Origin: Coraliomargaritaceae bacterium
GTDB lineage: Bacteria > Verrucomicrobiota > Verrucomicrobiia > Opitutales > Coraliomargaritaceae
Assembly (NCBI GenBank): GCA_965656495.1
Contig: CBFHKU010000001.1
Span: 82,781-146,780 of the forward strand
DNA: 64,000 bases
Reading direction: 5' to 3'
Positions within the stretch are counted from its first letter, which is position 1. The number at the start of each line of letters is the position of its first letter. Under the pieces are notes generated by a model. The model was not told the DNA's origin. It saw only the letters and a program-made list of their open reading frames with translations, and did no database searches. Made by a program: the position numbers and the translations under genes. Below, piece by piece: positions 45,315 to 50,927 of the stretch.

Positions 45315-47843
45315 ATGCCAAAAAAAACCACCACTAAAAAGGCTGCGGTCGCCAAGACTAAGCCTACCAAAAGCCCGCGCAACGGCTTCAAATTTCAGAT
45401 CGATTCCGATACCGCATCGTTGAAGGTCTCGATCCTGAACCACCTGCGGTTTACGCTGGCGCGACATGCTGAAAACGCCTCCCCGCAGGAATGGTGGACC
45501 GCTACCTGTTTTGCGGTGCGCGACCGTCTCCTCGACCGCTTCATGACCACCCAGGAAACCCATCATAAAAAGAAGGTGCGCCGCGCCTACTACCTCAGTC
45601 TTGAGTATTTGATGGGTCGACTCCTTTTGAATAATCTCCACAACGCCGGTCTCTACGATGCCACCCGTGACGCGCTCGGTGAATTGGGGCAGGATCTCGA
45701 TCAAATTGCCGCTGAAGAAGCGGACATGGGTCTCGGCAACGGCGGTCTGGGACGGCTGGCTTCTTGTTTTCTCGATTCCCTCGCCACCCTGGATCTCCCG
45801 GCGATTGGTTACGGCATCCACTACGAATTTGGTCTCTTCCGGCAGGAGTTCCGCGACGGTCACCAGATTGAACACCCCGACGTCTGGCAGGAGAAAGGTT
45901 GCCCCTGGGAAGTCATGCGTCCCAATTTTGCGCAGGAGGTGAAGCTTTACGGACGTATCGAACACCAGATGGATGACAGTGGAAATTTTCATCCCCAATG
46001 GGTTGATTACAAAACCGTGGAAGGCGTACCCTTTGATATTGGCATTGTGGGCTACGGCGGCAGCAGCGTGAATTTCCTGCGCCTCTGGGATTCCCGCGCT
46101 TCACAGGAATTCGACCTCGAAACCTTCAATGCCGGCGGCTACGTGGAGGCGGTCCGTGAAAAAGCCATCGGTGAAACCATTTCCAAGGTCCTTTATCCCA
46201 ATGATTCCACCGAGAACGGCAAGGAACTGCGCCTCGTTCAGCAATACTTCTTCGTGAGTTGCTCCCTGCAGGACATCATCCGCCGTTTCTTCGACAGCCA
46301 CGATGACTGGCAGGAATTCCCCAAGTTTAACGCCATCCAACTCAACGATACGCACCCTGCCATCACCATTGCAGAGCTCATGCGCCTCTTGGTGGATCAA
46401 TACGAAATGGAGTGGGAGGCCGCCTGGGAAATCACCCGTGCGAGCTGTAACTACACCAACCATACCCTTCTGCCCGAAGCGCTCGAAAAATGGAGCGTTG
46501 ATTTGCTCGGTCGCGTCCTGCCCCGCCACCTTGAAATCATTTTTGAAATCAACCGCCGTTTCCTCGAGCGCGAAGTGGAGGCCAAATGGCCGGGCGACGC
46601 CGCCAAAAAGACAGCGCTTTCACTCATCGAAGAAGGACAACCCAAGATGGTGCGCATGGCCTACCTCTCAGTGGTCGGCTCCACCAAAGTCAACGGAGTC
46701 GCCGCGCTCCACACCGAGCTCCTCAAGAAGCATCTCTTTGCAGACTTCCACGCCCTCTATCCCGATAAACTGATCAATATGACCAACGGCATCACGCCCC
46801 GCCGTTGGTTACTGGCATGTAACCCGGGACTCAGTACCCTTGTCTCCAAGAAAGTCGGTTGCGATTGGCCCCGCGATCTCGACAAACTTCAAAGCCTGTC
46901 AGATTACGCAGATGACCCGGCCTTTCAAAAGCAATTCATGGCAGTGAAGCGCGCCAACAAAGTTGCCTTTGCGGAATACGCCCTCGAGCACTGCGGTGTC
47001 AAAATCAACCCCGATGCTTTGTTTGATGTGCAAATCAAGCGCCTTCACGAATACAAGCGCCAGCACCTCAACCTCCTACATATTCTCACCCTTTACCGGC
47101 GCATCCTTCAAAATCCGGATTATGTGATGCAGCCCCGCGTCTTTATTTTTGGCGCCAAGGCCGCTCCCGGTTACGCCCTCGCCAAAAATATCATCCGTGC
47201 CATCAACAAAGTGGCGGAGGTCGTCAACAATGACCCCCGCATCGAGGATAAGATTAAAATCGTCTTTCCCCAAAACTATCGCATCACGATGGCGGAGCGC
47301 ATTATTCCCGCCGCCGATCTCTCCGAGCAAATTTCCACTGCCGGCAAGGAGGCCTCCGGTACCGGCAACATGAAGCTGGCACTCAATGGCGCCCTCACCA
47401 TCGGTACCCTGGACGGCGCCAATGTCGAAATTCAGGAAGAAGTCGGTGAGGACAACATCTTCATTTTCGGCAATACCGTTGAACAGGTTGAAGCCCTCCG
47501 CGCCCGCGGTTACAATCCCTACGATCTGTACAATGCCAATTGGGAACTCAAGGCCGTCATCGATTGGCTTCACTCCGATTACTTCACCCCCGGTGAGCAG
47601 GATGCCTTTGCGCCCTTGTGCCGGAGCCTTCTGGAGGAGGGCGATCCCTACCTCTGCCTCGCCGACTACGACAGCTATATCAAGGCTCAGGAATCTGTTG
47701 ACCGCGCCTACCGCGATCCCACCCAATGGGCACGCATGGCGATTCTCAATACCGCCCGCGTCGGAAAATTCTCCTCCGACCGTACGATCAGCGAATACGC
47801 CAAGCAGATTTGGAAACTCAAGCCCGTTGCGGTTCAAGCCTAG
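45315..47843 (+). CDS. glgP: Glycogen/starch/alpha-glucan phosphorylase
   Basis: [35 protein letters not shown] (PLP lysine), GTLDGANVE. Confidence 0.97.
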
Positions 47844-48231: not shown

Positions 48232-48305
<74 letters not shown>

Positions 48306-48321
48306 CCTTTTCCCCAAAGCG

Positions 48322-48475
48322 GGGTCTACACCAAAGATTGGGGACAAGGCATATATTTTGTAATTGTTGTAGTGTGATTAACCGCACTGTGCGATGACGG
48401 GTCTACACCAAAGATTGGGGACAAGGCATATATTTTGTAAGTGTTGTTGTGTGATTAACCGCACTGGACGATGAC
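48322..48475. repeat. 77-bp tandem duplication immediately downstream of tRNA-Cys
   Basis: GGGTCTACACCAAAGATTGGGGACAAGG...GATGAC at 48322-48398 and 48399-48475, with few mismatches. Confidence 0.9.
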
Positions 48476-48640
48476 CCTGAGACGGTAGTTATTAAAGTTT
48501 TTGAATCCGTATGCTCGACGCTGAATGAGCTTCATTTTTTCTGTCCGCATCTGTTGATCCTAAGCGTAGCTTGAATGTGGTCTGCGCCACGTCTTCGCTT
48601 GACGCTTGACTTTGACGGACACTTGTCCGACGGTAGTTTT

Positions 48641-48946
48641 ATGGTATCTTTTGTGACAACACGCGAGCTTTCTAAACGACCAGGACAAGTCATGTCAAAA
48701 ATGTCGGAGGAGGGGCCGCAGGTGATTACTCAAAACGGAGTACCTGCGGCTTACTTGATTCCAACAAGTGGGCGCGGGATTGAGGCGGATCTCGATAGTT
48801 TACGTCGCCTCTTACTAGGTCGCGCCTTGGATGCCGCGCAAGCTGAAGCGGCGTGCGCCGGTGCATCGAAATTAAGCATGGATGCGATCAACGATGAGAT
48901 TTCGGCCATGCGTAAAGAGCGGCGTAAAGCTGGGTCTGGCAAGTAG
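48641..48946 (+). CDS. Phd/YefM-family antitoxin
   Basis: FVTTRELSKRPGQV...PQVITQNGVPAAYLI; coupled to the PIN gene. Confidence 0.8.
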   Translation: MVSFVTTRELSKRPGQVMSKMSEEGPQVITQNGVPAAYLIPTSGRGIEADLDSLRRLLLGRALDAAQAEAACAGASKLSMDAINDEISAMRKERRKAGSGK

Positions 48947-49365
48947 TGGGAAAGTCGGCACCAGCTTGGGTGATCGATACCAATGTGTTAGTCTCGGCTG
49001 CATTATCAGCAGGTGGCACTTGCGACAAAATTCTGCGCGCGGCGGTAGAAGGAAAAATACGCTTTGCTTGGTCTGCTCCCATCCTTGCAGAGTATCGGGA
49101 GGTACTCTTGCGCCCAAAATTCGGTTTCTCGCCGCAGGTCATTGCATCGTTTCTGACCGTTTTTGCGCCTGGTGATCAAGTTGGGCCAGAATCGGCTCGA
49201 TCACTTCCTGATGCGGAGGATGAAATTTTCCTTGCGGCAGCACTCGCCACAACAGACCGTATCTTAATTACTGGTAATCAGGTGCACTTTCCAAGCGATC
49301 TGTGTGCCCCGGTAAGGGTTCTTTCGCCAGCCGAGGCCGTTCGATTGCTTGGTGCAGTAGAATGA
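48946..49365 (+). CDS. PIN-domain toxin (VapC-like, PIN_3 type)
   Basis: VIDTNVLVSA, EYREVL, DAEDEIFLAAA, LITGN. Confidence 0.85.
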   Translation: MGKSAPAWVIDTNVLVSAALSAGGTCDKILRAAVEGKIRFAWSAPILAEYREVLLRPKFGFSPQVIASFLTVFAPGDQVGPESARSLPDAEDEIFLAAALATTDRILITGNQVHFPSDLCAPVRVLSPAEAVRLLGAVE

Positions 49366-49804
49366 GCGATGTGAGCGCAGTCATGCGGTCGAATTGTTTA
49401 ATTCTGGCTCTGATTGTTTTGATTTGATCGACAAGCTGCAAGGACAAGAGATCTTTCCTGCAGTTTCTACTGACCGCACGTATCTCATTTGCTTTACTTA
49501 AGGTTTGGATTAGCGCCTGCGCTTCTTTGGAGAGTTCCATCTATTTGAGCACGTGCGAGACCGCCCCATTGTTCAATGATTTGTGCCGAGCAAATGCATT
49601 CTGCCATCGGATGGCTCGGTGGATTTCATGCTCCGTCTTCTTCGGGCGCTTTCGGATTTTAGGTGCTTTATGGCCACACTCTTTATGAACAGGGGAGAGA
49701 ATCGCACAGTTTTCCATGGGCTTCTTTCGGCAGAGGGCGATTTCGAGGGGGAGGGTGAATCCGCTTTGTCGCTCTCTGGGCACCGAATGCCTTGTAGCCC
49801 ACAA
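49268..49804 (-). pseudogene. Probable decayed mobile-element gene (HTH-like), split by an in-frame TAG at 49541-49543
   Basis: Two ORFs in the same frame read ...HRAIRWQ...VSHVLK*MELSKEAQALI, reminiscent of 'RVSQILxLLxLAPEIQ' HTH proteins seen next to recombinases. This is recalled similarity, not a search result. Confidence 0.4.
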
Positions 49805-49956
49805 TTTTACTGCATCAAGAAAGTAATCGCTCCAACGGAAATGTTACATTCTGTGTGCCAAAGTGTCGATTTTGTGAAAAAAACGTAATTTTTCCTTCCC
49901 AACGGTATATAAACGCATACACTTTGTATTCCAGTGAAGCGTATTACTATGCAAAC

Positions 49957-50100
49957 TGGATGTACACAAGGCAGCGTTGCCTTAGAGTCCATTCGCTTCA
50001 CCACTTTAGGTTCCGCGTGGAGCCGCTTTGTTTTCCCGGCAGTGCCGCATTCCCATTCGGATCGTGGCTTGATGCTGCCGGTTAACCCCAACAAAGGAGA
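49957..50100 (+). promoter_or_regulatory. Structured 5' leader (three hairpins, last one pairing into the SD) of the twin small-protein operon
   Basis: AAGGCA-GCGT-TGCCTT; GGTTCC-GCGT-GGAGCC; CTTTGTT/AACAAAG plus CCGGCAGT/GCTGCCGG plus GCCGC/GTGGC. Confidence 0.55.
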
Positions 50101-50103
50101 TAA

Positions 50104-50337
50104 ATGGAAAAAATAACCTCACAGCTGACTGATGTGATTAAGGGCATATCCGAACTCGGAATTGGCCTGATTGCACTTGGAATCATTGCTGAAATTGTCT
50201 TCGGCCAAGGCGCTATATTTGGTGCCAGCGTGGTCGGAAACTTATCCTCAATCGTGGCCGCCATCGGCGGTGAAAACGGTTTTATTGGCCTCGTTGCCAT
50301 CATCCTTATCTTCGCTCTGCTGCGCAAACGCGCTTAG
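50104..50337 (+). CDS. Small two-TM membrane protein, paralog A
   Basis: Strong AAGGAG SD; two hydrophobic segments; basic C-terminus (RKRA). Confidence 0.85.
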   Translation: MEKITSQLTDVIKGISELGIGLIALGIIAEIVFGQGAIFGASVVGNLSSIVAAIGGENGFIGLVAIILIFALLRKRA

Positions 50338-50384
50338 TGGAACTCAGAAAACAAAAGCAAAACTAACGTAAACCAACTACTACT

Positions 50385-50612
50385 ATGGAAGATATATCCA
50401 ACAAACTGAAATCCCTGATCGGTAATCTCTCCGATATCCTCATTGCTGCTATTGGCCTGCTCGTTGTGGTGCAGGTGGTATTCGGCACCGCAGGCAACCT
50501 CGATGTCATCAGCAACCTTACTGCTCTGGTTGACAGCTTTATCGGCAGCGGCGCAAGCCTTGCCAGCCTGGTGACGCTCGTCCTGATTATGGGCGTGCTC
50601 TCCAGAAAATAA
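50385..50612 (+). CDS. Small two-TM membrane protein, paralog B
   Basis: Aligns by eye with paralog A (ME.I...L...I...S......I.L.....VFG...V..NL...V........LV...LI...L.RK). Confidence 0.85.
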   Translation: MEDISNKLKSLIGNLSDILIAAIGLLVVVQVVFGTAGNLDVISNLTALVDSFIGSGASLASLVTLVLIMGVLSRK

Positions 50613-50643
50613 ACCTCAAGATCGCTACTTGAAGTTTGGAACT

Positions 50644-50673
50644 GGGAGTCCCTGAGAGGGGGCTCCCTTTTTT
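50644..50673 (+). terminator. Intrinsic terminator after the twin small genes
   Basis: GGGAGTCCCT-GAGA-GGGGGCTCCC followed by TTTTTT. Confidence 0.8.
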
Positions 50674-50727
50674 ATGTCCGGATAAAGCCTGCTGCTTATA
50701 CCATTTTGAAAAAGGTGTGGCCTGAAA

Positions 50728-50858
50728 TACCCCTCCCACCTGACAAGCAGGTGACCTCCCCTTCGCAGGGGAGGAGCTTTTTAGCTCCCCTCCTTGACGA
50801 GGAGGGGTGGCTCGCCCGCCCTGAGCCTGTCGAAGGTGCGTAGCGAGACGGGGTGGTG
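50728..50858. repeat. REP-like palindromic element containing a CCCTGAGCCTGTCGAAGG module
   Basis: Multiple short hairpins; the module is the near reverse complement of CCTTCGACAAGCTCAGGG at ~61364. Confidence 0.55.
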
Positions 50859-50927
50859 CCATTTAGGCCAAACCTTTATCGAAGTGGTATTAAAAGCTCG
50901 GATCCCTCTAAAACGACAACCGACCGA

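Follow-up and report, generated by a model that had tools for sequence, protein, structure and literature searches.

The leader of ompA is a stabilising structured 5' untranslated region (UTR) that carries a 5'-terminal stem-loop and no leader-spanning open reading frame (ORF), and in hok/mok a small hydrophobic toxin is encoded by a folded mRNA whose translation is dependent on an overlapping upstream frame. Leaderless short ORFs head polycistronic mRNAs in mycobacteria (PMC4633059; bioRxiv 10.1101/834739), and translational coupling by termination-reinitiation has also been described (PMC6728339; review PMC12548453). The operon analyzed here consists of genes A and B, which encode two small membrane proteins behind a folded leader, and it is located in a stretch of 64,000 nucleotides (nt) from a Coraliomargaritaceae bacterium (G000:C1:82781-146780; hereafter the window), the genome of which is 2.06 Mb in size and 99.4% complete. 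The leader is spanned by a throw-away upstream ORF (uORF), which appears to be an unusual way of gating translation.

The operon would work most like the mycobacterial operons led by leaderless uORFs and like termination-reinitiation coupling. As in the mycobacterial operons, a 5'-terminal AUG or GUG would open an unannotated short first cistron whose translation affects the downstream genes; the ORF studied here differs in that it passes through 175 nt of covarying RNA structure, is tolerant of frame shifts and lacks conserved codons such as Cys runs, in that the predicted 5' UTR is 3-4 nt long rather than 0, and in that the host is a marine verrucomicrobium. Termination-reinitiation coupling resembles the present case in that the upstream stop overlaps the downstream start or lies next to it (ATGA, TAA-ATG, -7 to +13), whereas the upstream cistron here does not encode a conserved protein and its junction with gene A is part of a conserved hairpin. 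With ompA the operon shares a long leader that is structured and begins with a hairpin, ahead of a presumably abundant envelope protein, but ompA has no counterpart of the leader-spanning ORF and there is no sequence relationship between the two. The small hydrophobic product, the folded mRNA and the overlapping upstream frame are reminiscent of hok/mok; unlike in that system, two conserved paralogues with two transmembrane (TM) helices each are encoded, they belong to a cross-phyla family with one copy per genome, and no antisense RNA was seen.

A conserved and covarying structured leader precedes gene A. Its structure was studied in an alignment (A3) of leaders of the same type as that of the window, with 34 distinct sequences taken from contigs of genomes and metagenomes; the counts out of 34 given below refer to this alignment. 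The leader is about 175 nt long from the predicted transcription start, instead of the ~145 nt assumed in an earlier note on this DNA, of which the quoted motifs and the three hairpins were all found where they had been placed (Table 1). The folding of the leader was better than that of 199 out of 200 dinucleotide shuffles (z -3.6) and remained so when only the part from the predicted 5' end was folded (z -3.2), with one shuffle in 200 being as good in each case. RNAalifold, which was blind to the proposed structure, recovered the upper stem of hairpin 1, hairpin 2, and the base and middle of hairpin 3 in a consensus of 27 pairs, 14 of them with compensatory change. The full proposed structure was paired in 89.3% of the alignment cells, as compared with 33.5-43.6% in slid controls with the partners shifted by 1-3 columns, and changes on both sides were present in 21 of its 45 pairs, a value reached by none of 500 shuffles. 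Compensatory changes among the homologous leaders preserve hairpin 2, the upper stem of hairpin 1 and the middle stem of hairpin 3, the last with six of eight pairs compensatory and 99.6% paired. The top of hairpin 3 was paired in 73.5%. In the 5'-terminal hairpin P1, pair 14-37 was GC in 17 leaders, GU in 11 and AU in six, and the inner stem (49939-43/49948-52) was 83.5% paired with zero compensatory changes. The base of hairpin 3 (CUUUG/CAAAG) showed no variation beyond C-G to U-G, so that covariation speaks neither for nor against this stem. The proposed stem CUUUG(UU)/(AA)CAAAG, proposed to occlude the Shine-Dalgarno (SD) sequence of gene A, covers only the AAG of AAGGAG, and its two extension pairs were broken in 18 and nine of the 34 sequences, respectively.

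Other elements that had been regarded as the signature of a new cis-regulatory RNA were not conserved. The supposedly shared GCGU loop was present in hairpin 1 in five, in hairpin 2 in ten and in both in only four of the 34 leaders, and its occurrence in both loops of the window is, judged from these sequences, a coincidence. The outer pairing GUGAAGCG/CGCUUCAC does form in the window's own minimum free energy (MFE) structure, but it was only 62.5% paired over the alignment and is clade-specific; a UGGA/UCCA extension was paired in 58.8% and yet is likewise part of the window's own MFE structure. Both of them compete with the better-kept stem P1. The palindrome AATGTTACATT was found in one of 40 distinct related upstream regions, which was that of the window itself. 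What is left of the claim is the conserved structured leader, without the loops, the palindrome and the outer stem.

Neither the leader nor the proteins belong to any of the curated RNA and protein families that were tested. The leader had no match to Rfam at E<=10; cmscan of positions 49700-50750 against Rfam 15 at this threshold gave six chance-level rows, the best of which scored 17 bits where the gathering score is 45, and the sole row inside the leader (RF01079) was on the minus strand with 16.4 bits against a cut-off of 50. The RNA motifs of the Weinberg-type motif papers are reportedly included in Rfam. A covariance model of A3 detected exactly one site in the host genome, at the operon (E 5e-63). 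It matched 23 of 101 genomes of the family and did so at a single locus in 21 of them, the others being G076 (6% contamination), which has two leader loci, and G068, which has two partial adjacent matches. The leader adjoined gene A in all ten genomes in which both were located, and no recurrence before functionally linked genes was seen, the model sitting at gene A wherever checked. Other forms of the leader were found in relatives: a short form of ~95-100 nt that follows promoters of the TTGACA type (the G2 and L051 types, which can be aligned with each other and have in common a long hairpin in three parts with 18 pairs, seven of them compensatory), a form of 271 nt that is longer by an insertion of about 98 nt (L032, L036 and further copies that are identical over the last 191 nt), and an AT-rich form that has no SD and is about 200-300 nt long. 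Such strong differences in architecture from clade to clade, together with one copy per genome, argue against a ligand-binding aptamer.

The gate is likely the uORF, which was unnoticed in the first reading and spans the whole leader. Its start codon, at columns 14-16 of the alignment, was GTG in 28 and ATG in six of the 34 leaders, the change from G to A being the only one at the first base of this RTG, and in all 34 the frame ended within -7..+13 of the ATG of gene A (at -7, at -3 or beyond). Indels of 1 nt at columns 26 and 150 place three subclades in three frames with unrelated peptides. A conserved start codon opens a frame that is kept open in three different registers, and since the same nucleotides are read in different frames among the subgroups, the peptide is not the conserved thing. 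In the subclade with the deletion at column 150, the stop codon of the uORF is a TAG made by the SD variant AAGTAG, and this G-to-T change in the SD provides the uORF with its stop in six of the seven AAAGTAG sequences. Dinucleotide shuffling left the frame open in 3-18% of trials (per-sequence P 0.03-0.18); stop triplets counted over all frames were not depleted, with six in the window and a shuffle mean of 7.3. An interpretation of the leader as a conserved protein-coding gene was considered and rejected, because subclades use different frames and encode unrelated peptides, and for the same reasons no conserved regulatory codons of the kind found in trp/his-type leader peptides were recognized.

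Upstream frames were also found in other leader forms. In L032 and L036, with the long insert, a uORF of 74 codons starts from the same GTG (P 0.04) and ends 46 nt before gene A. The AT-rich leaders, with a GC content of 30-39%, have uORFs of 54-75 codons that begin at a conserved 5' ATG (P 0.010-0.034 in the four tested) or, in further leaders of this form, uORFs of 62-129 codons; they end at -5, at about -30 or inside gene A. In the short leaders the GTG is invariant (22/22), and most of the sequences compared have ATGA or TAA-ATG at the end of the frame; in two more it is fused in-frame with gene A. Such fusion probably explains the 'long forms' of 97-106 amino acids (aa) present in databases. 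Some of the 'long' homologues (90-106 aa; P0106, P0111, L045, L056, L122 and L129) consist of the upstream frame plus A, either fused in-frame or begun at an upstream ATG, and are either the result of misannotation or evidence of a genuine extension of the N-terminus in the lineages concerned.

Promoter conservation was counted over 30 distinct upstream regions, with positions numbered from the first C of CCAGTG. The near-invariant T-13, A-12 and T-8, with variable bases between them, are the signature of a -10 hexamer, and relatives of the L051 type have TTGACG-N17-TTAAAT in the same register as the -35 and -10 elements. The promoter was not flagged by a sigma-70 scan because of its poor -35 element. 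The motif CCA[G/A]TG is located at a fixed distance of 172-174 nt ahead of the ATG in G1 leaders. Given the position of the -10 element, the transcript would start within about 4 nt of the conserved GUG/AUG, which would place the stem P1 at the extreme 5' end of the RNA.

Parts of the window were present in 24 sequencing runs with shares of 0.12-0.27, 19 of which are recorded as RNA and come from 14 studies. The operon itself was covered by contigs of four RNA libraries from four studies. One contig (49985-50131) begins on the 3' side of hairpin 1, passes hairpin 2 with its U-tract and reaches into gene A, four bridge the two genes (50266-50451, 50094-50459, and a pair at 50304-50438), and contig ends were located at 50628 and 50689. 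The operon is bicistronic, in agreement with the claim, and is present in RNA libraries of several studies. Nothing was found on 49700-49950 or beyond 50707 in the four runs, which says nothing on the ends of the transcript.

We tentatively favor an account, to which we give a little less than an even chance, in which a near-leaderless uORF is coupled to the translation of gene A through a folded and probably stabilising leader. Control at the level of translation is plausible, while both the translation of the uORF and its coupling to gene A are inferred. A transcript from the predicted promoter, with its good -10 element and its unusual, conserved -35 region, would be entered by ribosomes at the 5'-proximal RUG, in a leaderless or nearly leaderless manner. 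Translating a frame whose product is irrelevant, they would melt hairpins 1-3 on their way across the ~175-nt folded leader to the ribosome-binding region of gene A, would terminate beside its SD and AUG, and would pass to gene A by termination-reinitiation or by unmasking of its start. When the uORF is not translated, the leader would fold into the 5'-terminal hairpin and the long hairpin 3, the base of which reaches into the SD, and this fold would protect the 5' end of the mRNA and damp direct initiation at gene A.

Several points weigh against this account. The transcription start is a prediction, and the contigs of the RNA libraries, which may contain DNA, show presence and not starts, strands or levels. 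A GUG that is 3-4 nt from the 5' end, without SD and inside P1, would be a poor start in model bacteria, and a constant transit of ribosomes would fit oddly with strong selection on the helices. The open frames of the short leaders (25-30 codons) are at chance level (P 0.2-0.7 and 0.36-0.65), and L116 and L117 have no such frame (P 0.82 and 0.94). With the uORF stop 46 nt (L032/L036) or about 30 nt (L043/L120) before gene A, direct hand-over of ribosomes is less obvious. Homologues in Alphaproteobacteria and Phycisphaeraceae have short leaders with strong SDs and no uORF, only one of 14 reaching P<0.05. Moreover, the uORF test was post hoc, the sequences are related and the single-sequence P values are modest, so that the evidence for the avoidance of stop codons in this frame is good but not conclusive. 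With the same reservation, and with L116 and L117 as exceptions, the upstream frame seems to be kept open by selection.

Part of these data could also be explained if the leader were a purely stabilising structured 5' UTR of a highly expressed mRNA, in the manner of ompA, and the frame were untranslated and without function. The location of P1 at the predicted 5' end would be as expected, as would be a leader that is single-copy and gene-specific, a gene that assembles from modest metatranscriptomes of several studies, and the alphaproteobacterial homologues, which combine promoters of the TTGACA type and strong SDs with short leaders that contain hairpins but no uORF. However, it would be left unexplained why the RTG frame remains open after frame-shifting indels and in leaders of 27-39% GC, why G-to-A is the sole change at the first base of the RTG, and why the stop is positioned at the ribosome-binding region of gene A in most classes of leaders; we consider this explanation unlikely. 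A sensor, which would be a riboswitch, a protein-bound leader (with autoregulation by A/B or a dedicated regulator) or an attenuator formed by hairpin 2 and its U-tract, seems more doubtful still. It would be in agreement with the strong covariation in four helices that match nothing in Rfam, with the mutually exclusive pairings of the 5' domain (P1 versus the outer stem), and with a -35 region that is conserved but non-canonical, as in activator-dependent promoters. Hairpin 2 followed by GCUUUGUUUU is terminator-like, and hairpin 2 with its U-rich tract was indeed flagged as such by a scan, but a contig from an RNA library reads through it into gene A; no covarying antiterminator was identified, and the uORF crosses hairpin 2 rather than stopping ahead of it. 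Neither do the 34 leaders have an evident conserved unpaired core, as their loops vary, and whole hairpins change between clades in leaders of about 95 to 271 nt that occur once per genome and always at the operon.

The resemblance to hok/mok raises the question whether the operon could be a module like a type I toxin-antitoxin system of the hok/mok/sok kind, with hydrophobic proteins translated only via the overlapping upstream frame. The products are small and hydrophobic, the folded leader has a leader-spanning frame that ends at the start of the main gene, and in the RNAalifold consensus UCCA at the 5' end forms an invariant 4-bp pairing with UGGA at the start codon of gene A. On the other hand, the proteins are 75-77 aa long with two TM helices, they are conserved with 64-96% identity across genera and recognizably across phyla and on phage contigs, and only one locus is present per genome. 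Nor did the consensus scan flag a promoter for an antisense RNA: it found no promoter-like site on the minus strand over 49930-50104, and the only one on that strand (49869-49841) points away. A module of this kind is very improbable. The uORF account could be taken further, although we would rather doubt this extension than accept it, to a 'pioneer' frame without sequence constraint that must be translated from the 5' end of the mRNA to license the pair of membrane proteins. If so, expression of the operon would indicate how well the cell can initiate leaderless translation independently of an SD, for instance when stressed or growing slowly, and the protein family would have been acquired by marine T4-like phages together with hsp20 and porin-like genes.

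The best explanation of the operon as a whole is that of a stand-alone unit for two paralogous small inner-membrane proteins, which are two-helix hairpins rich in conserved glycines. The two tandem ORFs of 77 and 75 aa are paralogues as claimed, with 30% identity (E 6e-9), and since gene B has no recognizable SD, A and B may be produced in unequal amounts. The AlphaFold2 model of A has a long helix (2-33), a short one (43-55) and a third at 59-76, with a predicted local distance difference test score of 82. No known family or fold was matched. No Pfam family matched A or B at E<=10, the matches in NCBIfam (E 0.16-0.44) were far short of the cut-offs, and the best matches in PHROGs (E 0.019), PADLOC (E 0.042) and the PDB sequence profiles (E 0.76) were below threshold. 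A Foldseek search of the model of A against the PDB returned a single row (E 8.7) and no fold match, a wide search with VIA-align gave a best Z of 4.1, which is meaningless for a helical hairpin, and the ESM Atlas had only unnamed clusters (0.91-0.93) with no usable named match. The VirB2/TrbC pilins and the pilin-like proteins of integrative and conjugative elements (PF04956, PF18895 and PF11190) are similar in size (about 75-100 aa) and in having two hydrophobic helices, but the matches to them were below threshold and confined to distant family members (PF11190, E 0.15-0.59; PF18895, E 0.18), no signal peptide was evident by eye, and VirB4 (PF03135) was not found in the host genome (99.36% complete), while the Caulobacter control was positive. 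Prediction of an A+B complex gave a score of 0.00, which in a run without controls counts neither for nor against binding. Our guess is that A and B are helical hairpins of N-in/C-in topology with conserved glycines that form a hetero-oligomeric membrane assembly with a role in the envelope or in stress, which is hinted at by the tandem pairs in two phyla and by the phage-contig homologues beside hsp20 and porin-like genes.

The two proteins are not orphans, as they had been called. At E<=0.01, 159 relatives of A and 84 of B were found in a set of 5.8 billion proteins, and a joint A+B profile matched 353 representative clusters (50% identity) at E<=1e-3, of which 37 remained at E<=1e-10. Relatives with a named source were all labelled 'hypothetical' or 'uncharacterised' and came from marine Opitutia or Verrucomicrobiota, apart from two 'marine metagenome' rows. 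The family is found in marine Opitutales, Alphaproteobacteria, a metagenome-assembled genome of Phycisphaeraceae and T4-like viral contigs, with an identity of 64-96% across genera and with members recognizable across phyla and on phage contigs. None of 56 family representatives reached the threshold in a Pfam scan, the sole recurring lead being a full-length alignment of two proteins to DUF2976 with a non-significant E of 0.15-0.59, and a search of the literature for the family or the leader gave nothing relevant. Among 61 related genomes, 13 (G000 included) carry the family, 12 of them with A and B as separate tandem genes, and A is followed by B in all 36 verrucomicrobial loci examined. In G033, residues 1-54 of A are joined to residues about 25-74 of B in a single ORF of 105 aa (L015 1345-1662, minus strand); the ORF is preceded by a normal leader (covariance model E 4.6e-33) and is the result of either recombination between the paralogues or assembly collapse. 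A single family gene was present at four alphaproteobacterial loci and at the Phycisphaeraceae locus. In the class of G125, which holds the alphaproteobacterial locus L064, 20 of 301 sampled genomes carry the family, and six of these 20 have two matches within about 0.5 kb; tandem pairs were observed in L168, L176/L188, L181/L189, L184/L194, L178/L195 and L177. The arrangement with two genes is therefore not peculiar to Opitutales.

Homologues are also encoded by 16 IMG/VR contigs (L149-L164), which are judged to be of the T4-like marine myovirus type from their neighbor genes (RegA, dUTPase, ribonucleotide reductase, ferredoxin and Hsp20). An hsp20 gene lies within about 1 kb of the homologue in L152, L158, L161 and L162, and in L157 and L158 the homologue directly follows a gene for a porin/Phage_OMP-like protein of 216-217 aa. 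A tblastn search of GenBank phage records with A and a viral homologue found none at E<=1e-3, a result in which low-complexity filtering may hide matches.

No conserved gene neighborhood of the family was found among the cellular loci compared. The flanks of the operon differ among Opitutales (phosphorylase, sulfatases, MDH, T2SS-F and GH16); downstream of the family gene, RecX is present in L064 and an ORF of similar size in L065, a likeness of size only. In the window, the distance from the phosphorylase gene to gene A is 2261 nt, as compared with ~750-925 nt in the relatives L031 and L037, and because of this shorter spacing the toxin-antitoxin pair and the 90-aa ORF on the minus strand, in the region 48232-49540, look like an insertion at the tRNA. 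The strong terminator claimed to close the operon is present (Table 1). Past it, a G+C-rich stretch (50700-50870) contains several inverted repeats of the CCCCTCC/GGAGGGG type, and a second terminator-like hairpin lies within this stretch at 50755-50774.

Table 1. Features of the operon, its leader and its surroundings in the window (positions are those of the window)
Feature	Position	Strand	Remarks
Glycogen phosphorylase gene	45315-47843		upstream of the operon
tRNA-Cys	48232-48305		
Phd/YefM-like antitoxin gene	48575-48946		after tRNA-Cys
PIN-domain toxin gene	48946-49365		directly after the Phd-like antitoxin
90-aa ORF		-	no family; between the PIN toxin and the operon
-35-position element CTTCCC	49895..49900	+	non-canonical; C-36 29/30, T-35 29/30, C-31 28/30
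-10 element TACACT (TAnnnT)	49918..49923	+	T-13 29/30, A-12 29/30, T-8 30/30; three inner positions vary
Transcription start, predicted	49929..49933	+	7-10 nt downstream of the conserved -10
5'-terminal hairpin P1 (CCAGU/ACUGG)	49931..49959	+	93.5% paired; 1/5 pairs compensatory plus G-U
uORF, GTG to TAA	49934..50116	+	60 codons; overlaps the start of A by 13 nt
Hairpin 1 upper stem (AAGGCA/UGCCUU)	49968..49983	+	4-nt loop; 5/6 pairs compensatory; 90.2% paired
Hairpin 2 (50009-50024), then U-rich tract GCUUUGUUUUC	50009..50035	+	4/6 pairs compensatory; 98.5% paired
Hairpin 3	50026..50096	+	base 50026-32/50090-96, middle 50036-43/50074-81, top 50044-68
SD of gene A, AAGGAG	50093..50098	+	AAAGGAG 27/34, AAAGTAG 7/34
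Gene A	50104-50337	+	77 aa; N-terminal amphipathic helix, TM1, FG turn, short helix, TM2, basic tail
Spacer between A and B	50338-50384		47 nt, A/C-rich, without recognizable SD
Gene B	50385-50612	+	75 aa; paralogue of A
Intrinsic terminator	50644-50673	+	10-bp stem (50644-50667) with 7 GC pairs, then TTTTTT
TonB-dependent receptor gene		convergent	after the operon

If the account of a translated uORF is true, the leader would be a clear natural case in which an RNA fold and an open frame with an irrelevant product are selected on the same nucleotides. It would be a useful model for the balance between ribosome transit and mRNA structure, and a caution for motif searches that translation of a 'non-coding' leader is possible. 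The family itself is abundant in streamlined marine heterotrophs, occurs in tandem in two phyla and is present on phage-like contigs; being without a name, a fold match or an assigned function, it is a sensible target for work on small membrane proteins.

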